Virus record (IMG/VR): IMGVR_UViG_2660238360_000003
Reading direction: 5' to 3' (one strand)
Source of the DNA: a virus
Taxonomy: Duplodnaviria; Heunggongvirae; Uroviricota; Caudoviricetes
DNA: 15,474 nt
Part shown: piece after piece, positions 2,016 to 14,160 of the stretch
Numbering within the stretch: position 1 is the first letter of the stretch
How the letters are laid out: each line of letters opens with the position of its first letter
Position numbers and translations under genes: made by a program
The notes under the pieces: generated by a model
Seen by the model: the letters and a program-made list of their open reading frames with translations, nothing else
Told to the model about the DNA's origin: nothing
The model's database searches: none

Positions 2016-3434
2016 ATGAAATATTTCTCAACTGGTTTTTATGTTTCAAACTCCACATCTCTAGCTGAGATCTTTAATGAATGTTTTTCTTGGGTAAACG
2101 ACTCACCACATACAACTTTTATTCCAGCACAATTAGTATGTGATTATAAAAGCGAGGAGTACTTCATAGAGTCTAAAAATGAAAGAATTGATATAATAAC
2201 TTATAAAAACAAAGATACTAGTTTAGGCTGTTTTAGGTATTCGAAAATATCTGAGCCACACAAATGGGTAACAGATATTTCAATTAATAAAAATCTCAAA
2301 ACTGATACCATGTGGATTCAGGTGGAATCTAGCGTTGTAAGCCAAGATGCAGCTTATCTAGCCCCGCAACCTAAGAAACCATTAGTTGTTATGAGATTGA
2401 TTGATAAATTTTCTGGTGGTCTTGATGATATTTTCAAGGTGTCAGTCGAACCTCATTCCTTAGATGATACTGATGAACATTTAAATATAGCAGCTAAAGT
2501 TATAAATGGTGAAACTGACAACAGACTACCAATAATATACGTTAGCTCCAAGTATTTTTTTAATGAACATGCTCACAATATCATCCCAGAACGCCTTGCA
2601 AGAAAGGTATGCGGATTAGCACATGTATTAATTGAGCCTAGCAATAGACTATTTTCTATTAAGCTAAAAAATGAGACAAATGCTAAAAATGCCTATGCTG
2701 GTGCTGTTGGTATCTATTGGCCACGGGGTCAAAATATCAGTTTTTATCGCCGTGGTGAGAAAACCGCAAAAGAATTTGAAGATGAGTTATTTGATGATGT
2801 TGTAAGAGCTACGACTACAATGGCTCCTGTCTCAGATAGTGGATGGAGTGAGATACAAACCAGAAAAACGAAAGACTCTATTAACTCACTCAAAGAAAGA
2901 GGAGAATACACACGCGAACTGATGGCGCTTTACGAAGCCGATAATGTTGCGAAAGATGACCAAATAGAAGATCTTAAGCATAAGATCTCCTCTTTAGAGC
3001 ACAGAGTACGCACTCTTCAATCACAAGCTTCAGCCCAAGGAAGCATTGTGCTTAATGCTGGTGAAGAGACTGATTTTTTTGATGGAGAAATCAAAAATAT
3101 AATTATTGACGCACTAAAAACTGCCATAAAAAATAAAAATGAATTTGGTAGAAGCTACCATATCTTATCATCCCTAATTGCCAATAATGAATACAATAAA
3201 GAAACCGAGAGTCGCCGCCAATTACTTAAAAGGACTTTAACAGGTTACAGAAGCATGGATAGCGCAACACAAAGAAATTTAAAGGACTTAGGTTTCAGTG
3301 CGTCAAGCGATGGAAAACACTGGAAGTTAACATATAATGAAGACCCTCGATATTCCTATATTTTACCTAAAACAGGAAGTGACCACAGAGGTTCTTTAAA
3401 TGCTATCTCGGATATAGCAAACATTATTTTCTAA
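2016..3434 (+). CDS. hypothetical protein (472 aa), AT-rich accessory (moron) gene of unknown function; candidate anti-phage/abortive-infection protein
   Basis: Long uninterrupted ORF in a visibly AT-rich segment where random ORFs are short; ATG preceded by AAGGAA; opposite strand to the flanking pR-operon genes; followed by a strong hairpin; no Walker A or other motif I can assign. Confidence 0.8.
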   Translation: MKYFSTGFYVSNSTSLAEIFNECFSWVNDSPHTTFIPAQLVCDYKSEEYFIESKNERIDIITYKNKDTSLGCFRYSKISEPHKWVTDISINKNLKTDTMWIQVESSVVSQDAAYLAPQPKKPLVVMRLIDKFSGGLDDIFKVSVEPHSLDDTDEHLNIAAKVINGETDNRLPIIYVSSKYFFNEHAHNIIPERLARKVCGLAHVLIEPSNRLFSIKLKNETNAKNAYAGAVGIYWPRGQNISFYRRGEKTAKEFEDELFDDVVRATTTMAPVSDSGWSEIQTRKTKDSINSLKERGEYTRELMALYEADNVAKDDQIEDLKHKISSLEHRVRTLQSQASAQGSIVLNAGEETDFFDGEIKNIIIDALKTAIKNKNEFGRSYHILSSLIANNEYNKETESRRQLLKRTLTGYRSMDSATQRNLKDLGFSASSDGKHWKLTYNEDPRYSYILPKTGSDHRGSLNAISDIANIIF

Positions 3435-4790: not shown

Positions 4791-5716
4791 AAATCCACCC
4801 CGTAAATCCAGTCAGTGTTTGTCAGGTCGAGTTTTGATTTTCCGGCTATCACGCCAGCCTGTTGCTTGTTACGGTTGATTTCGAGTTGGGTCCACTTGTC
4901 GCGGAGTTTGGCCGGACTTAGCACGTTACCGGACCAGAAGTTGTCCTGGCATGCCCAGCGGAACAGCACGCACATGTCGCGGTGGTTACGGCCGTCACGT
5001 TCACGCATCAGGCGGATATCGTTAGCCCACCCTGCAAAATTCGGTTTTCTGGCTGATGGCGCGATGGTCTTCACCATGTCAAACATCCACTCTGCGGCGG
5101 TCAGGTCTTCTGCTGTCCCCCACCTGCTGCCGCTCTGAATTGCAGCATCTGGTTTCTCCACAGGAAGATCGTTTTCTGGTTGGTCAGAGGATTCGCCAGA
5201 ATTCTCGGACGAAAAAGGTTTTATATTGTCTTTTGTTAGTTTGTATTTTGTGTTTACCTGATTCGGGTAAGTGCCTTTACCTGATTTGGGTAAACTTTTC
5301 TTACCTGATTCAGGTAAATTTACCTCTTTCAGGTAAACTTTATTTTTCTTACCTGATTCGGGTAATGTTGACCATTCACTGACCACATTATTAATGCCGA
5401 TATTCCGCCCGCTCTGAATAAAAATCCCACGCTTTACCAGAACACTTTTTGCAGCAGAACACTTGTGCGGCAATATCCCGGTCAACTCGGAAAGTTGCTC
5501 GTTGCTCACCCAATCCAGTTTTTTATTAAAGCCATATGTTTTGCGCATGACAGCCAGGAAGACCAGAAGCTGGTGCTGTGTTAATCCGGCCAGCATCACA
5601 GCTTCCAGCAACTCATTTGCAATGCGCGTATAACCATCATCGAGATCTGCCACGCGCGGCTCCTTTTGTGCCGCATCCGGCACTGGAAAATTGAATATCT
5701 CAGCAGTGTTTGCCAT
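4787..5716 (-). CDS. O: replication initiator O, chimeric: lambda-type C-terminal domain, non-lambda N-terminal iteron-binding domain (about 309 aa from ATG at 5716)
   Basis: C-terminal half ...SGESSDQPENDL...TAEDLTAAEWMFDMVKTIAPSARKPNFAGWANDIRLMRERDGRNHRDMCVLFRWACQDNFWSGNVLSPAKLRDKWTQLEINRNKQQAG... matches lambda O; start taken at MANTAEIFNF with GGGAGG RBS, not the longer ORF-track start at 5806. Confidence 0.88.
   Translation of the reverse strand: MANTAEIFNFPVPDAAQKEPRVADLDDGYTRIANELLEAVMLAGLTQHQLLVFLAVMRKTYGFNKKLDWVSNEQLSELTGILPHKCSAAKSVLVKRGIFIQSGRNIGINNVVSEWSTLPESGKKNKVYLKEVNLPESGKKSLPKSGKGTYPNQVNTKYKLTKDNIKPFSSENSGESSDQPENDLPVEKPDAAIQSGSRWGTAEDLTAAEWMFDMVKTIAPSARKPNFAGWANDIRLMRERDGRNHRDMCVLFRWACQDNFWSGNVLSPAKLRDKWTQLEINRNKQQAGVIAGKSKLDLTNTDWIYGVDL
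5254..5365 (-). repeat. replication origin iterons: five ~17-bp repeats (TTACCTGATTCGGGTAA and variants) inside O, flanked by an AT-rich stretch (about 5205-5253)
   Basis: Copies at 5254-5270, 5277-5293, 5301-5317, 5320-5336, 5349-5365; arrangement mirrors lambda ori but the repeat sequence is different. Confidence 0.8.
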
Positions 5717-5802
5717 AATTCCTCCCGCAATGAGTGTGTTACGATTTGCACCTGAAAGTCGGTTCTGTTCCCGCAGACCGACTTTCGCCATTTCTGAACC
5801 TG

Positions 5803-6342
5803 TCATATTGCCCCCAGCATGGTGGTCACCATCGCCATTAATGGACCAGCCAGATCCGGGTCCACACGAAACATCGACACAATACCTTCACTCATTTCCT
5901 TCAGTTTCTGGTGGCGTGGTGCGTTGAGAATGACAGCCTGTTTTGCCTCACTGAGTTCCTTTTCCATTTCAGCCAACCGAGTCATGAAGCTATCCTGCTC
6001 AACCAGGTAACCGCGATATTCCAGCGGTAGTACCGCCAGAATTGCCGGGGTCAGTTCACGCACGTTATTTCGGTATTTTTCAGAATCGAATTTGTTATCG
6101 AGGAAGCGGAACAGCTTCTGGCGTGCACGGCTGACATCATCAGGGAAATCGATGGTGCCGTCGCCCTGCTCCCGATACTCATTCACAATGAGTGCGGCAA
6201 CGACATCCTGATTATCTACAGCCGACCAGGCGCGGACGGCATCACGGATTTTTTCGTGGCCTGGAGCTTGTTTTGTTTGAGAACGATTTATCACCGCAGT
6301 CGGAATAAATCCGCTAGTCTGTTGGTATGTAAGTGGTTGCAT
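5803..6342 (-). CDS. YdaT-family protein in the cII position (179 aa)
   Basis: ATG preceded by AAGGAG; segment ELTPAILAVLPLEYRGYL resembles my recollection of Rac YdaT; sits between cro-like gene and O. Confidence 0.55.
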   Translation of the reverse strand: MQPLTYQQTSGFIPTAVINRSQTKQAPGHEKIRDAVRAWSAVDNQDVVAALIVNEYREQGDGTIDFPDDVSRARQKLFRFLDNKFDSEKYRNNVRELTPAILAVLPLEYRGYLVEQDSFMTRLAEMEKELSEAKQAVILNAPRHQKLKEMSEGIVSMFRVDPDLAGPLMAMVTTMLGAI

Positions 6343-7665: not shown

Positions 7666-8046
7666 ATGAGAAAAATCCTAATCGCTGCCATGATGGCATC
7701 TGTATTGGCTGGGTGTGCTTCTTCAGGCAACCAGCAACTCAAAAATGAAACTGAAATTAGTGTCCAGTCTAAACTTCAGGAAGGTAAAACAACCAAGAAT
7801 GAGGTTAAATCTTACTTTGGTTCTCCTGATGCTGTTTCATATACTGACAGTGGAAACGAGATCTGGAAGTACGCCTTTGCAAAAGTAAAAGTTAATGGCA
7901 CCACTTTTATTCCATTCTATGGATTATTCCATAATGGAACGAACGGTACGAAAAAAGAACTTACTATTCTTTTTAACGATGACACGATTAAGAAATACAC
8001 AATGTCAGAAACCCAAATAAACTCGAAATCAGGTTGGGCTGACTGA
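7666..8046 (+). CDS. lipoprotein (126 aa) with possible BamE/SmpA-OmlA-like domain, in the rexAB position downstream of cI
   Basis: Signal peptide MRKILIAAMMASVLAGC with lipobox LAGC; AT-rich; GGAAAC upstream of ATG; possible own -10 TATAAT at 7645-7650; GKTTKNEVKSYFGSPD...WKYAF...LTILFN pattern recalls BamE-type lipoproteins. Confidence 0.75.
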   Translation: MRKILIAAMMASVLAGCASSGNQQLKNETEISVQSKLQEGKTTKNEVKSYFGSPDAVSYTDSGNEIWKYAFAKVKVNGTTFIPFYGLFHNGTNGTKKELTILFNDDTIKKYTMSETQINSKSGWAD

Positions 8047-9111: not shown

Positions 9112-9897
9112 ATGAGTACAGCACTCGCAACGCTGGCTGGGAAGCTGGCTGAACGAGTCGGCATGGATTCTGTCGACCCACAGGAACTGATCACCACTCT
9201 TCGCCAGACGGCATTTAAAGGTGATGCCAGCGATGCGCAGTTCATCGCATTGCTGATCGTCGCCAACCAGTACGGTCTTAATCCGTGGACGAAAGAAATT
9301 TACGCCTTCCCTGATAAGCAGAACGGCATCGTTCCGGTGGTGGGCGTTGATGGCTGGTCCCGCATCATCAACGAAAACCAGCAGTTTGACGGCATGGACT
9401 TTGAACAGGACAACGAATCCTGCACATGCCGGATTTACCGCAAAGACCGCAATCATCCGATCTGCGTTACCGAGTGGATGGATGAATGCCGCCGCGAACC
9501 ATTCAAAACCCGCGAAGGCAGAGAAATCACGGGGCCGTGGCAGTCGCATCCCAAACGGATGTTACGGCATAAAGCCATGATTCAGTGTGCCCGTCTGGCC
9601 TTCGGATTTGCTGGTATCTATGACAAGGATGAAGCCGAGCGCATTGTCGAAAATACTGCATACACTGCAGAACGTCAGCCGGAACGCGACATCACTCCGG
9701 TTAACGATGAAACCATGCAGGAGATTAACACTCTGCTGATCGCCCTGGATAAAACATGGGATGACGACTTATTGCCGCTCTGTTCCCAGATATTTCGCCG
9801 CGACATTCGCGCATCGTCAGAACTGACACAGGCCGAAGCAGTGAAAGCTCTTGGATTCCTTAAACAGAAAGCCACTGAGCAGAAGGTGGCAGCATGA
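9112..9897 (+). CDS. bet: Bet (Red-beta) single-strand annealing recombinase, 261 aa
   Basis: [66 protein letters not shown]... matches lambda Bet. Confidence 0.95.
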
Positions 9898-10574
9898 CAC
9901 CGGACATTATCCTGCAGCGTACCGGGATCGACGTGAGAGTTGTCGAACAGGGGGATGATGCATGGCACAAATTACGGCTCGGCGTCATCACCGCTTCAGA
10001 AGTTCACAACGTGATAGCAAAGCCCCGCTCAGGAAAGAAGTGGCCTGACATGAAAATGTCCTACTTCCACACCCTGCTGGCTGAGGTTTGCACCGGTGTG
10101 GCTCCGGAAGTTAATGCTAAGGCGCTGGCCTGGGGAAAACAGTACGAGAACGACGCCAGAACCCTGTTTGAATTCACTTCCGGCGTGAATATTACTGAAT
10201 CCCCGATCATCTATCGCGACGAAAATATGCGCACCGCCTGCTCTCCCGATGGTTTATGCAGTGACGGCAACGGCCTTGAACTGAAATGCCCGTTTACCTC
10301 CCGGGATTTCATGAAATTCCGGCTCGGTGGTTTCGAGGCAATAAAATCGGCTTACATGGCCCAGGTGCAGTACAGCATGTGGGTGACGCGAAAAGATGCC
10401 TGGTACTTTGCCAACTATGACCCGCGCATGAAGCGTGAAGGCCTGCATTACGTCGTGGTTGAGCGGAATGAAAAGTACATGGCGAGTTTTGACGAGATGG
10501 TGCCGGAGTTCATCGAAAAAATGGACGAGGCACTGGCTGAAATTGGTTTTGTATATGGGGAGCAATGGCAATGA
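9894..10574 (+). CDS. exo: lambda exonuclease (Red-alpha), 226 aa
   Basis: [65 protein letters not shown]... matches lambda Exo; start overlaps bet stop (ATGA). Confidence 0.95.
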
Positions 10575-10753
10575 AGCATCCTCACGATAATATCCGGGTA
10601 GGCGCGATCACTTTCGTCTACTCCGTTACAAAGCGAGGCTGGGTATTTCCCGGCCTTTCTGTTATCCGAAATCCGCTGAAAGCCCAGCGGCTGGCTGAGG
10701 AGATAAATAATAAACGGGGAGCTGTATGCACAAAGCATCTCCCGTTGAATTAA
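10571..10753 (+). CDS. lambda orf60a-like protein (exo-xis region), 60 aa
   Basis: [50 protein letters not shown]...; ATG overlaps exo stop; position matches lambda orf60a. Confidence 0.6.
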
Positions 10754-10917
10754 GAACGAGTATCGAGATGGCACATAGCCTCGCTCAAATTGGAGTCAGG
10801 TTTGTGCCAATACCAGTAGAAACAGACGAAGAATTTCATACGTTAGCCGCATCCCTTTCACAAAAGCTGGAAATGATGGTGGCGAAAGCAGAAGCAGATG
10901 AGAGAGACCAGGTATGA
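10726..10917 (+). CDS. lambda orf63-like protein (exo-xis region), 63 aa
   Basis: [63 protein letters not shown]; position and length match lambda orf63. Confidence 0.6.
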   Translation: MHKASPVELRTSIEMAHSLAQIGVRFVPIPVETDEEFHTLAASLSQKLEMMVAKAEADERDQV

Positions 10918-10927
10918 CAACCACTGA

Positions 10928-11209
10928 ATGCATTTTTCTGGCAGCGGGCTTCATATTCTGTGTGCTTATGCTTGCCGACATGGGGCTTGTTCAATGACAC
11001 CTCAGCAAGAAAACGCCCTTCGCAGCATTGCCCGTCAGGCTAATTCTGAAATCAAAAAAGCCAGACAGCAGTTTCCGGATAAAAACGTCGATGACATTTG
11101 CCGTAGCGTACTAAAGAAGCACCGCGAAACGGTAACGCTGATGGGATTCACACCGACTCATTTAAGCCTGGCGATCGGCATGTTGAACGGCGTCTTTAAG
11201 GAACGGTGA
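10928..11209 (+). CDS. lambda orf61-like protein (exo-xis region); true start probably the internal ATG at 10994 (MTPQQENALRSIARQ..., 71 aa)
   Basis: ORF in the expected position; neither candidate start has a strong RBS. Confidence 0.5.
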   Translation: MHFSGSGLHILCAYACRHGACSMTPQQENALRSIARQANSEIKKARQQFPDKNVDDICRSVLKKHRETVTLMGFTPTHLSLAIGMLNGVFKER

Positions 11210-11307
11210 ACATGAAAAGCAAAATCATCAGGGAGCTACAGGCTCCTTTTTTATTATTCGCATTCACCCTCAAGCGTATTAACCAACAATTCAGGGATTA
11301 ATGAAAG

Positions 11308-11529
11308 ATGGCAGACATAATTGATTCAGCATCAGAAATTGAAGAATTACAGCGCAACACAGCAATAAAAATGCGCCGCCTGAACCACCAGGCTATATCT
11401 GCCACTCATTGTTGTGAGTGTGGCGATCCGATAGATGAACGAAGACGACTGGCCGTTCAGGGTTGTCGGACTTGTGCCAGTTGCCAGCAAGATCTGGAGC
11501 TTATCAGTAAACAGAGAGGTTCGAAGTGA
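11308..11529 (+). CDS. TraR/DksA-family C4 zinc-finger protein (lambda orf73-like), 73 aa
   Basis: CCECGDPIDERRRLAVQGCRTCASCQ four-cysteine motif typical of the TraR/DksA family; length and position match lambda orf73. Confidence 0.8.
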   Translation: MADIIDSASEIEELQRNTAIKMRRLNHQAISATHCCECGDPIDERRRLAVQGCRTCASCQQDLELISKQRGSK

Positions 11530-11681
11530 GCGAAATTAACTAGAAGCCAAAGATAAAATCATCGCTGAGCAGGAGAAAATCGCTAACGGAGAAAAGACAG
11601 TAAGTCAGTATATGAAAACCGCATGATATCATCAGATAAAAATCGGTCGTAAAGCGAAATATTAATACCAGAACAAACGAG

Positions 11682-11705
11682 TCGAGGTAAATTATATTAC
11701 CTCGA
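11682..11705. terminator. hairpin (9-bp perfect stem TCGAGGTAA / TTACCTCGA, loop ATTATA) between convergent genes; candidate bidirectional terminator
   Basis: Exact inverted repeat between orf73 (plus) and the membrane-protein gene (minus); flanks are A/T-rich but not a clean U-tract. Confidence 0.4.
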
Positions 11706-11739
11706 TAAATTAACTAAAACTTGCCCGCTATATACTATA

Positions 11740-12342
11740 TCATTCAGTATCATCACGCGCGGTCTGTGCATATGTCACTACCGCACCTAATATATTAATT
11801 TTCTTTTCAACATAGATAATATTATCGTACTCATAATTGCCATACGGATAGCAAATGCGAATATTCTCATGTAGATCGGGGTCATCCACCTCAGCTCCAG
11901 AACAACTTTTTGAACTACCGGAAGTATACCGATACGGTGCAACGTAAGACGATGTCTCTCCAGGCAAAAAATAAGTTAGTGTCGTAAGGGGTATAATCAG
12001 AAAAAATCCAGCAAATATGCACATCCCTGCATAAACCTTAAGGTATGCTGACAGACTCTTCCAGCCGCTTTGTTTTACTATCCCCTTCTTAACCCAAAAC
12101 AGAGATAACAGAAAAGCTATTCCCATGCTAAACAGAATGTAATAGTGGGATATACTCTGATTAAGAAACGTGACCCTGTAGATATCTGCCCGCCACCAGA
12201 AGAAAAGGAAAATAAAGATCAGCCCTGAAACTGTCATGCAAATCAAATAAGGATACGAATCTTTTTTCATGTTTAGCGCCCATAAAATTTTTCCTGACCC
12301 GGACAAATTTACCATCCATTTTTTGCGCAGAAAATAGCTCAT
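11740..12342 (-). CDS. hypothetical integral membrane protein (about 175-200 aa, three predicted TM segments, soluble C-terminal tail), AT-rich accessory gene
   Basis: Hydrophobic stretches YLICMTVSGLIFIFLFFWW, YYILFSMGIAFLLSLFWV, VYAGMCIFAGFFLIIPLTTLTYFL; opposite strand to the pL operon; occupies the position of lambda ea22/ea8.5; start ambiguous (ATG at 12342, 12315 or 12270, none with a strong RBS). Confidence 0.6.
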   Translation of the reverse strand: MSYFLRKKWMVNLSGSGKILWALNMKKDSYPYLICMTVSGLIFIFLFFWWRADIYRVTFLNQSISHYYILFSMGIAFLLSLFWVKKGIVKQSGWKSLSAYLKVYAGMCIFAGFFLIIPLTTLTYFLPGETSSYVAPYRYTSGSSKSCSGAEVDDPDLHENIRICYPYGNYEYDNIIYVEKKINILGAVVTYAQTARDDTE

Positions 12343-12515
12343 TACTTACTGCACAATAATACACAAAATTGCGTAAATTTTTTGCATGGATTTTAGCTCT
12401 TTCAGCCGACATTTAAGGGGTAAATAGCATTTCCTAAAAGCAACTGCACCAACCCAACAGAATGGGCTACCGCTTACGTTGAGAGCAAAAAAGTGTATAG
12501 CAGCAATGAACAGCA

Positions 12516-12570
12516 TCCTCGCACTGACGAGGATTTCTTTTATCTGAACTCGCTACGGCGAGTTTTTTTA
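12516..12570 (+). terminator. two tandem rho-independent terminators
   Basis: Hairpin TCCTCG-CACTGA-CGAGGA then TTTCTTTTAT (12516-12545); hairpin AACTCGC-TACG-GCGAGTT then TTTTTTTA (12547-12570). Confidence 0.65.
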
Positions 12571-12741
12571 TGGAGATGATAAATGCACTTCCGAGTCACA
12601 GGTGAATAGAATGGAGAACCATTCAACAGAGTTATCGAAGCCGAGAACATCAGCGACTGCTATGACCACTGGATGCTGTGGGCGCAGATAGCACATGCAG
12701 ACGTAACCAATATTCGAATTGAAGAACTGAAAGAACACCAA

Positions 12742-12765
12742 GCCGCCTGATGGCGGTTTTTTCTT
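12742..12765 (+). terminator. rho-independent terminator just upstream of xis
   Basis: Hairpin GCCGCC-TGAT-GGCGG(T) followed by TTTTTTCTT. Confidence 0.7.
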
Positions 12766-12789
12766 GCGTGTAATTGCGGAGACTTTGCG

Positions 12790-13008
12790 ATGTACTTGAC
12801 ACTTCAGGAGTGGAACGCTCGCCAGCGACGCCCAAGAAGCCTTGAAACAGTTCGTCGATGGGTGCGCGAATGCAGGATATTCCCTCCTCCGGTTAAGGAT
12901 GGAAGAGAATATCTGTTCCACGAATCAGCGGTAAAGGTTGACTTAAATCGACCAGTAACAGGTAGCCTTTTGAAGAGGATCAGAAATGGGAAGAAGGCGA
13001 AGTCATGA
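12790..13008 (+). CDS. xis: excisionase Xis (lambda-type), 72 aa
   Basis: MYLTLQEWNARQRRPRSLETVRRWVRECRIFPPPVKDGREYLFHESAVKVDLNRPVTGSLLKRIRNGKKAKS matches lambda Xis; 3' end overlaps int as in lambda. Confidence 0.95.
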   Translation: MYLTLQEWNARQRRPRSLETVRRWVRECRIFPPPVKDGREYLFHESAVKVDLNRPVTGSLLKRIRNGKKAKS

Positions 13009-14056
13009 GCGCCGGGATTTACCCCCTAACCTTTATATAAGAAACAATGGATATTACTGCTACAGGGACCCAAGGACGGGTAAAGAGTTTGGATTAGGCC
13101 GAGACAGGCGAATCGCAATCACTGAAGCTATACAGGCCAACATTGAGTTATTTTCAGGACACAAACACAAGCCTCTGACAGCGAGAATCAACAGTGATAA
13201 TTCCGTTACGTTACATTCATGGCTTGATCGCTACGAAAAAATCCTGGCCAGCAGAGGAATCAAGCAGAAGACACTCATAAATTACATGAGCAAAATTAAA
13301 GCAATAAGGAGGGGTCTGCCTGATGCTCCACTTGAAGACATCACCACAAAAGAAATTGCGGCAATGCTCAATGGATACATAGACGAGGGCAAGGCGGCGT
13401 CAGCCAAGTTAATCAGATCAACACTGAGCGATGCATTCCGAGAGGCAATAGCTGAAGGCCATATAACAACAAACCCTGTCGCTGCCACTCGCGCAGCAAA
13501 ATCAGAGGTAAGGAGATCAAGACTTACGGCTGACGAATACCTGAAAATTTATCAAGCAGCAGAATCATCACCATGTTGGCTCAGACTTGCAATGGAACTG
13601 GCTGTTGTTACCGGGCAACGAGTTGGTGATTTATGCGAAATGAAGTGGTCTGATATCGTAGATGGATATCTTTATGTCGAGCAAAGCAAAACAGGCGTAA
13701 AAATTGCCATCCCAACAACATTGCATGTTGATGCTCTCGGGATATCAATGAAGGAAACACTTGATAAATGCAAAGAGATTCTTGGCGGAGAAACCATAAT
13801 TGCATCTACTCGTCGCGAACCGCTTTCATCCGGCACAGTATCAAGGTATTTTATGCGCGCACGAAAAGCATCAGGTCTTTCCTTCGAAGGGGATCCGCCT
13901 ACCTTTCACGAGTTGCGCAGTTTGTCTGCAAGACTCTATGAGAAGCAGATAAGCGATAAGTTTGCTCAACATCTTCTCGGGCATAAGTCGGACACCATGG
14001 CATCACAGTATCGTGATGACAGAGGCAGGGAGTGGGACAAAATTGAAATCAAATAA
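12986..14056 (+). CDS. int: tyrosine integrase Int (lambda-type), 356 aa
   Basis: MGRRRSHERRDLPPNLYIRNNGYYCYRDPRTGKEFGLGRDRRIAITEAIQANIELFSGHKHKPL... near-identical to lambda Int as I recall it, including the C-terminal catalytic region (...HELRSLSARLYEKQ...HLLGHKSDTMASQYRD). Confidence 0.97.
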   Translation: MGRRRSHERRDLPPNLYIRNNGYYCYRDPRTGKEFGLGRDRRIAITEAIQANIELFSGHKHKPLTARINSDNSVTLHSWLDRYEKILASRGIKQKTLINYMSKIKAIRRGLPDAPLEDITTKEIAAMLNGYIDEGKAASAKLIRSTLSDAFREAIAEGHITTNPVAATRAAKSEVRRSRLTADEYLKIYQAAESSPCWLRLAMELAVVTGQRVGDLCEMKWSDIVDGYLYVEQSKTGVKIAIPTTLHVDALGISMKETLDKCKEILGGETIIASTRREPLSSGTVSRYFMRARKASGLSFEGDPPTFHELRSLSARLYEKQISDKFAQHLLGHKSDTMASQYRDDRGREWDKIEIK

Positions 14057-14160
14057 TGATTTTATTTTGACTGATAGTGACCTGTTCGTTGCAACAAATT
14101 GATAAGCAATGCTTTTTTATAATGCCAACTTAGTATAAAAAAGCAGGCTTCAACGGATTC
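14057..14160 (-). other. attL (B-O-P'): lambda att core GCTTTTTTATACTAA (minus strand, 14130-14144), P' arm with Int arm-type sites toward int, bacterial B arm toward ybhC
   Basis: Reverse complement of 14113-14152 reads TGAAGCCTGCTTTTTTATACTAAGTTGGCATTATAAAAAAGC; arm-type motif CAGGTCACTATCAGTCAAAATAAAATCATTA present on minus strand at about 14060-14090. Confidence 0.9.

Follow-up and report, generated by a model that had tools for sequence, protein, structure and literature searches.

A membrane-protein cassette of probable P2-like hotspot origin in the exo-xis region of a lambdoid prophage

The exo-xis region of a lambdoid prophage (IMG/VR virus record IMGVR_UViG_2660238360_000003; 15,474 nucleotides, the whole of which is termed the window) carries an AT-rich cassette in place of the lambda genes ea22 and ea8.5, and this cassette encodes a small membrane protein on the strand antisense to the pL operon. 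We are highly confident that this is a real accessory membrane-protein gene that originated in the hotspot that P2-like prophages have between gpQ (portal) and gpA (replication). An earlier note, made from the letters of this DNA, had described a moron-type insertion and had suggested superinfection exclusion or abortive infection as its role; the finding is real, its structural interpretation is right, and its functional interpretation is a reasonable but tentative one.

The substitution and its P2-like relics

Two blocks of the window match phage lambda by BLAST: positions 9722-11541 correspond to lambda 32200-30380 at 96.8% identity, and positions 12515-14144 correspond to lambda 29355-27724 at 98.3%. 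Because both of these flanking blocks match lambda, the 973 base pairs (bp) between them (11542-12514) exactly replace the part of lambda in which ea22 and ea8.5 lie. The GC content of the substitution is 38.3%, with 49% on its left and 45% on its right, and it runs at 0.36-0.41 over an open reading frame (ORF) of 200 amino acids (aa) and at 0.45-0.53 in both flanks. The GC profile and the limits of the lambda alignments bear out the original description of an AT-rich segment that replaces ea22 and ea8.5 and carries a gene on the opposite strand. The wider window is that of a lambdoid prophage, with P, O, a YdaT-domain protein, an S24 repressor, exo, xis and int, and the prophage end adjoins a pectinesterase-like host gene. 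Among otherwise collinear lambdoid phages the cassette is present in some and absent from others. The features on which the origin of the cassette turns are as follows.

11542-12514: substitution relative to lambda, 973 bp, 38% GC, of which 11540-12493 is homologous to the edge of the P2-like hotspot
11740-12270, minus strand: coding sequence (CDS) of the membrane protein, 176 aa, start ATG at 12270, stop codon at 11740-11742
12349-12493, minus strand: relic of P2-like backbone from the portal-side edge of the gpQ-gpA hotspot, with collinear matches to P2-like loci
11527-11626, plus strand: ea22 remnants, consisting of lambda 5' codons and an out-of-frame P2-like 3' end

A unit of 758 bp (window 12407-11650), comprising approximately 137 nucleotides (nt) of upstream DNA, the CDS and a hairpin at 11682-11705, is common to the window and to an Escherichia coli P2-like locus at 76% identity. 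Collinear homology to the P2 backbone reaches window position 12493, with approximately 78 bp missing relative to the P2-like loci. Three degenerate repeats with 10-bp phasing lie in this stretch (TTACGCA at 12376-12370, TTGTGTA at 12366-12360 and TTGTGCA at 12356-12350), and in the P2-like loci that carry the family the corresponding repeats are near-perfect copies of TTGTGCA. The exact triple TTGTGCA repeat was found in at least 120 IMG/VR contigs (L037-L156), 109 of which contain a P2-type portal gene and/or gpA; none of these contigs is lambda-like and none has the membrane-protein gene. Upstream of the repeats the contigs are conserved in sequence; divergence sets in right after the third. 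As the repeats are common to P2-like contigs whatever their cargo and divergence starts after the third repeat, the comparison identifies the triple repeat as P2-like backbone at the portal-side hotspot edge, not as a signal of the membrane-protein gene.

Analogous repeats occupy the corresponding place in the record of P2 itself (L157, 3953-3985; TAATGCA, TCATGCA and TGAATGCA), and the third of them would be at the -35 position of the old-tin promoter as judged from the annotated transcript starts. The repeats may be involved in terminase or cos recognition, may act as a promoter shared among cargo, or may mark a boundary of recombination. A promoter of the present gene that uses a repeat as its -35, as in P2 old-tin, was rejected on finding no conserved -10 at the right distance in the family. 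The 'CII site' annotated in phage 434 corresponds to window 12353-12366 and lies inside the P2-like relic; its interpretation as a CII site, or as an operator or activator site, was likewise discarded, because the repeats are P2-like backbone whatever the cargo, are decayed in the window, and are accompanied there by a YdaT-domain protein at the cII position. As the P2-type cos 19-mer was not found beside the repeats in the P2-like loci with the family, with up to 4 mismatches allowed, the term cos-proximal would hold for these loci by analogy with P2 itself only.

Relics are present at the left-hand end as well. The window retains the opening five codons of lambda ea22 (MSEIN) at 11527-11541, with a stop codon after them, and positions 11543-11626 form an out-of-frame Ea22-like C-terminal remnant of P2-like origin (EAKDKIIAEQEKIANGEKTVSQYMKTA, then stop); 11540-11583 matches P2-like loci at 77-80%. 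The family gene of one E. coli P2-like locus (L018) converges with a neighbouring Ead/Ea22-like gene (PF13935) whose product begins MSEINYQALRE, compared with MSEINSQALRE in lambda Ea22, and Ea22 homologues are consequently common to P2-like hotspots and the lambdoid exo-xis region. This gene (L018, 6622-7004, minus strand) is split across two frames. Taken with the collinear matches, nearly the whole substitution (11540-12493) is, by sequence, a piece of a P2-like hotspot, and an ea22 homologue was likely the left-hand crossover point.

The direction of transfer appears to be from P2-like to lambdoid phages, because the relics are of P2 type and allele diversity is lopsided. Among 80 IMG/VR loci, 65 are lambdoid, all at least 97% identical to the window and all with the ORF intact (65 of 65), and the remaining 15 are P2-like, with identities of 47-80%; the lambdoid allele is, on these alignments, essentially single and the P2-like alleles are diverse. 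A lambdoid phage would thus have captured a moron from the gpQ-gpA hotspot, probably with an ea22 homologue as one recombination anchor, and the captured cassette would have displaced ea22 and ea8.5.

Gene model, control signals and predicted architecture

The mechanical minus-strand ORF at 11740-12342 encodes 200 aa, the size given in the earlier note. An ORF of that length does exist; its product is probably the 176-aa protein initiated at ATG 12270, not at ATG 12342, because the start in all divergent homologues is equivalent to M25 (MKKxSYP), every other allele has in-frame stops 2-19 codons upstream of the equivalent ATG, and residues 1-26 of the AlphaFold2 model are disordered, with a predicted local distance difference test score (pLDDT) below 50. 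ATG 12342 was rejected as the start on the grounds that in-frame stops close the extension in all other alleles. Polymorphism of the extension among lambdoid alleles amounts to 1 synonymous and 2 non-synonymous changes. For the gene itself, the ratio of non-synonymous to synonymous substitution rates (dN/dS) is 0.09-0.16 against E. coli and Salmonella alleles of 59-78% identity, indicating strong purifying selection, and from such allele comparisons its coding status is beyond doubt. Within the lambdoid allele there are 12 synonymous and 12 non-synonymous polymorphisms, a ratio that indicates mild constraint only. The features bearing on gene structure and expression are the following.

12271-12342, minus strand: 24-codon N-terminal extension of the 200-aa ORF, probably untranslated and more likely 5' leader and promoter DNA
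12306-12314, minus strand: candidate extended -10 element TGGTAAATT (TGnTAAATT); transcription would start at approximately 12299, within the supposed N-terminal extension
11682-11705, minus strand: terminator-like hairpin downstream of the gene, with a 9-bp stem and a 6-nt loop followed by the T-rich tail CTCGTTTGTTC
12515-12565 (12515-12534 and 12546-12565), plus strand: two tandem intrinsic terminators of the pL operon, part of the lambda backbone and termed t-L4 in phage 434

P2-like alleles from E. coli and Salmonella with 70-76% DNA identity preserve the motif TG(G/A)TAAATT, and more distant ones preserve it in part; a consensus scan did not flag the candidate -10 because the accompanying -35 is weak. 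The hairpin at 11682-11705 is kept in L018, where, read by eye, an A-U pair is changed to G-C on both arms, and it is predicted from its sequence to be the terminator that belongs to the cassette, an expected attribute of a moron. The tandem terminators at 12515-12565 are conserved in lambda, 434 and mEp332, with a fold z-score of -4.4; they form the right-hand boundary and are outside the cassette. Hairpins are accordingly found on both sides of the gene, as first described, of which only the one at 11682-11705 belongs to it, the others being terminators of the lambda backbone.

With a candidate promoter of its own, one gene and a terminator hairpin, the cassette has the composition of a moron, and the initial proposal of a moron-type insertion is well supported by a travelling unit of 758 bp that is AT-rich, is oriented opposite to the pL strand and is present or absent in collinear phages. 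As the gene is antisense to the pL operon, it could be expressed from the repressed prophage; after induction, antiterminated transcription from pL would oppose its expression.

Hydropathy analysis identified three hydrophobic helices at approximately residues 29-52, 64-85 and 98-127 (200-aa numbering is used for all protein positions), and AlphaFold2 placed helices at 29-57, 62-85 and 93-125 and a five-strand C-terminal domain at 129-195. Both agree with the three hydrophobic helices and soluble C-terminal tail noticed at the outset. The full model has a mean pLDDT of 79.6, and the C-terminal domain on its own one of 91.8. The predicted topology is N-in and C-out, with a cytoplasmic N-terminus, three transmembrane (TM) helices and a periplasmic C-terminal domain, because the charge counts fit this arrangement: the loop between helices 2 and 3 has 5 lysine or arginine residues and no aspartate or glutamate, and the C-terminal domain has 6 of the former and 12 of the latter. 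The three hydrophobic helices and this positive-inside pattern together predict an inner-membrane location, and under this topology the cytoplasmic segments would comprise only approximately 5 and 18 residues. The C-terminal domain is modelled as a small five-strand beta-barrel resembling an oligonucleotide/oligosaccharide-binding (OB) fold and facing the periplasm. Cysteines C147 and C164 are invariant throughout the family and probably form a periplasmic disulfide. Conservation is focused on the predicted periplasmic face, in the loop after helix 1 (IYRVTFL) and in the C-terminal motifs CSGAxVxDPxL, IRICYPxGxY and EKRSNxLGxVV.

Family membership and distribution

The protein matches PHROG_1416, a family of 'unknown function', over residues 113-200 (E = 7e-51), and BLASTP aligned it with the representative of System #4 at 52% identity over 168 residues (E = 5e-57). 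System #4 is listed in Table S5B of Rousset et al. 2022 as a system of one protein ('3 TM') with no Pfam domain and 470 occurrences in the E. coli P2 hotspot (PMC9122126). These matches assign the window protein to the family of the P2-hotspot 'System #4 (3 TM)' and PHROG_1416, all single-gene, three-helix proteins with the same C-terminal motifs; the window copy differs in its location in the lambdoid exo-xis region and not in the P2 hotspot. A profile search of 1.84 billion representative proteins returned only 61 matches, the full-length family members among which are approximately 165-190 aa in length and have the same architecture, and homologues are confined to Enterobacteriaceae. One odd match, P0119, a repetitive protein of 3074 aa, was treated as spurious, as its Pfam matches were all sub-threshold. 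The search for remote homology thus yielded a family and no link from that family to a known exclusion or defence protein.

A sequence search of the PDB gave no match to the membrane protein, and Foldseek returned nothing significant from PDB or BFVD. DUF1093/YxeA (PDB 3npp) and NfeD-type proteins, which combine transmembrane helices with an OB domain, show a fold-class resemblance only, with all scores below significance, identity of approximately 11% and no Pfam match to either. Searches of the literature on mEp332, the exo-xis region of phage 434 and the peptide motifs of the family found nothing on the membrane-protein gene, and Rfam gave nothing meaningful on window 11400-12900.

The cassette is widespread in its lambdoid form. 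It was detected in 905 of 5426 complete E. coli genomes, counting those in which at least 80% of the query 11530-12790 is present. Phage mEp332 carries it at 99.5% identity, and the identity is 98.2% in both the classical phage 434 and phage 2B8; the 434 record annotates the cassette as two 'putative membrane proteins'. P2-like prophages of E. coli, Salmonella and Klebsiella encode homologues of 55-78% identity between gpQ and gpA, transcribed toward gpA and sometimes the sole cargo (in L005 and L018). The window copy lies between orf73 and xis, not between gpQ and gpA.

Several of these loci contain further genes. Salmonella P2-like prophages (L004 and L006-L010, approximately 5230-5890) have uncharacterised genes of 81 and 119 aa with no Pfam match, which usually lie upstream of the membrane-protein gene, with the portal gene on one side of them and the backbone repeats on the other. 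In Klebsiella P2-like prophages (L019-L021, 2281-5623) alongside the family gene the hotspot contains a 790-aa AAA_16-type nucleoside triphosphatase and a 279-aa protein, a pair that looks like a separate candidate defence system. The most distant members whose context was inspected (L022 and L023), on short metagenomic contigs, both adjoin a Polyketide_cyc (SRPBCC) gene, which may represent a conserved chromosomal neighbourhood. A contig of 3.6 kb binned as 'Candidatus Nanosynbacter' (L024, JARKOR010000073.1) encodes the family protein and a 56-aa protein, both 100% identical to those of the window, together with an exo of 96% identity, and is almost certainly E. coli prophage contamination of a metagenome bin.

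Public records already list the gene product as a hypothetical or putative membrane protein, and the family has been counted once as P2-hotspot cargo. New here are the corrected gene model, the predicted periplasmic OB-like domain, and the recognition of the lambdoid cassette, including that of 434, as a probable captured fragment of a P2-like hotspot with its backbone and ea22 relics. The gene is in keeping with a known kind, prophage morons for small membrane proteins, to which it would add a new family; the cassette is neither surprising in kind nor the answer to a long-standing question. The family is common yet has no name or domain assignment, its relatives being the fourth most frequent entry in the E. 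coli P2-hotspot catalogue. Whatever its function, the cassette would be a clear and datable instance in which cargo of a P2-like defence hotspot reached the exo-xis region of lambda, with the relics still attached, and its anatomy illustrates how accessory repertoires move between unrelated temperate phages. The analysis also corrects existing annotation with respect to the start codon, a doubtful 56-aa ORF and the 'CII site' of 434.

Functional readings and neighbouring features

The suggestion that the protein acts in superinfection exclusion or abortive infection is plausible. An anti-phage role of any kind falls just short of even odds in our estimation, exclusion of phages at the envelope is the best functional guess and a tentative one, and a block of genome entry specifically is doubtful. 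As proposed, a lysogenic-conversion protein at the periplasmic face of the inner membrane would exclude superinfecting phages by hindering genome delivery across that membrane, and its binding target may be a host inner-membrane or periplasmic component or the ejection or tape-measure proteins of the incoming phage. The complete reading describes a new and widespread single-protein defence, in which an OB-like barrel, stabilised by a disulfide and displayed on three anchoring helices, would intercept the genome-delivery machinery of particular phages; the cassette would move between temperate phages of unrelated lineages, here from P2-like to lambdoid phages through ea22 homology. We give this reading a probability of roughly 0.35.

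Genomic location is one line of evidence consistent with this reading. The gpA-gpQ locus, where the family is chiefly found, is the position of P2 old/tin and a validated hotspot for anti-phage systems (PMC9122126), and at the sister P4 hotspot 6 of 8 randomly chosen loci of unknown function were protective (PMC13586616). The family gene occupies the same slot and orientation in P2-like phages as P2 old/tin, being the first cargo after the portal-side repeats and directed toward gpA, and shares with old/tin the status of non-essential lysogenic-conversion cargo. Neither old nor tin is related in sequence to the family; Old belongs to the AAA-family ATPases and carries an exonuclease annotation, and the P2 record does not annotate Tin as a membrane protein.

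Comparison with known membrane-associated exclusion proteins provides a second line. P22 SieA, likewise the product of a prophage accessory gene, is of similar size (162-164 aa) and has three predicted TM helices. Its gene is transcribed from a promoter of its own, on the other strand from the phage genes around it, and the protein counters the DNA of incoming phages at the inner membrane. It differs in that its motif FxRYPxEAxxFNK, which was not present in the window protein, is predicted to be cytoplasmic, whereas the conserved domain here is a predicted periplasmic beta-barrel, and in that SieA is confined to P22-like phages, where its gene is flanked by genes 16 and 9. HK97 gp15 and T4 Imm are small inner-membrane phage moron or accessory proteins that block phage DNA entry, and HK97 gp15 is a textbook moron with its own promoter and terminator; both have another number of helices and no OB-like periplasmic domain, and no match to either surfaced in Pfam or PHROG searches of the membrane protein.

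A number of observations weigh against an exclusion function. Neither Pfam nor NCBIfam matched the protein, no PADLOC-DB v2 model matched it at E values up to 1, and hhalign gave no homology to P22 SieA or to the SieA types A-C (probability 0.3%). System #4 was catalogued by Rousset et al. 2022 but was not among the systems that were cloned (PMC9122126), and of the unknown proteins of the P2 hotspot, machine-learning scores marked only 15-32% as antiviral (PMC13586616). The gene's own promoter is, from its sequence, a candidate only. The P2 hotspot also holds cargo unrelated to defence, as in L018, where a StbA/Plasmid_stab_B pair adjoins the family gene. Finally, intact stand-alone chromosomal orthologues occur outside prophages in Enterobacter (L011-L013, L027-L030, L034 and L035), Klebsiella sp. 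(L014-L016 and L033), Citrobacter (L025) and Pseudescherichia (L031 and L032), and in at least six Enterobacter species the orthologue has a syntenic slot (LysR-X-HAMP/GGDEF); such orthologues fit a cellular envelope function.

These chromosomal orthologues and the non-defence cargo of the P2 hotspot are the principal support for the strongest rival, an envelope or host-physiology factor that is unrelated to phage exclusion and is carried as fitness cargo. Such a factor could confer stress tolerance, could modulate a sensor or transporter of the host inner membrane, or could serve as an orphan immunity protein against a toxin or bacteriocin that acts in the periplasm. Set against it, no toxin, transporter or sensor neighbour is conserved across contexts, and the phage-borne clade sits in a locus where the tested cargo is mostly anti-phage; we regard this explanation as unlikely on balance, though one to be taken seriously.

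Abortive infection through a RexB-like effector, in which infection would trigger depolarisation or permeabilisation of the inner membrane and cell death, is improbable. Small multi-pass membrane proteins are common defence effectors (PMC9122126) and the gene is located in a defence hotspot; on the other hand, the module consists of this gene alone, no sensor partner is conserved in lambdoid, P2-like or chromosomal contexts, and the gene is the sole cargo in L005 and L018 and stands alone in the chromosomes. The two short cytoplasmic parts and the concentration of conservation on the predicted periplasmic face also argue against such an effector, as does the stability of the chromosomal orthologues. 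Since hardly any of the protein is predicted to be cytoplasmic and no partner gene is conserved, periplasm-facing action is more plausible than abortive infection.

An equally slim prospect is that the gene is a passive hitch-hiker in lambdoid phages, functional in P2-like phages, not or no longer expressed after transfer, and kept only because its capture was recent. The near-monomorphism of the lambdoid allele and its balanced synonymous and non-synonymous polymorphism are compatible with this, as are the decay of the upstream P2-backbone repeats and the knock-out of the neighbouring orf55 in the window. The intact ORF in every lambdoid IMG/VR locus and in large protein clusters, the high frequency of the cassette in E. 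coli genomes together with its presence in the independently isolated phages 434, mEp332 and 2B8, and the intact candidate -10 element all speak against it.

If the preferred reading of phage exclusion is correct, 434 and approximately one-sixth of sequenced E. coli have an unnoticed exclusion function, and the family would be a new envelope-level defence family of relevance to host-range prediction and to phage therapy against E. coli, Shigella and Salmonella. The cassette is cheap to test because it consists of one small gene with putative control signals of its own.

The remaining feature is the ORF that precedes the gene.

12346-12516, minus strand: 56-aa ORF, called a 'putative membrane protein' in the 434 record and a 'hypothetical protein' in RefSeq

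A two-gene operon, in which this ORF would encode a small membrane partner translationally coupled to the 200-aa product, is suggested by the 3 nt between its stop codon and ATG 12342 and by the annotation of both ORFs in 434, mEp332 and RefSeq, and is very improbable given that the N-terminal extension of the 200-aa ORF meets stops in all other alleles and that the 56-aa ORF is missing from every other context of the family and has a body made of P2-backbone relic DNA. Its ATG is within the stem of the plus-strand terminator, directly abutted by GAGG in place of a spaced Shine-Dalgarno sequence, its polymorphism is 0 synonymous to 3 non-synonymous changes, and no homologue was found beside any P2-like or chromosomal family member. 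It was rejected as a partner gene on its start site, its lack of homologues elsewhere and its polymorphism, and is probably not a gene. PHROG, Pfam, NCBIfam and PADLOC gave no match to it, large protein databases not having been searched.

Several differences from related phages were observed in the flanking DNA. The homologue of orf55 (lambdap35; ORF55 of 434; window 12583-12609) is knocked out in the window by TAG at codon 9, which is TGG in lambda, 434 and mEp332. Just upstream of it, the second pL terminator (at approximately 12566) has a T-tract 2 bp shorter and one altered stem position. Phage 434 has an additional segment of 437 bp with ORF114 between orf55 and xis (L001, 3735-4172), which is missing from the window (12759-12762) and from mEp332. 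Elsewhere in the window, the cII position is occupied by a YdaT_toxin-domain protein in place of a lambda-type CII, the pL operon includes a 126-aa ORF with a weak BamE-like match, and a 472-aa ORF has no Pfam match; these three lie at 5803-6342, 7666-8046 and 2016-3434, respectively.

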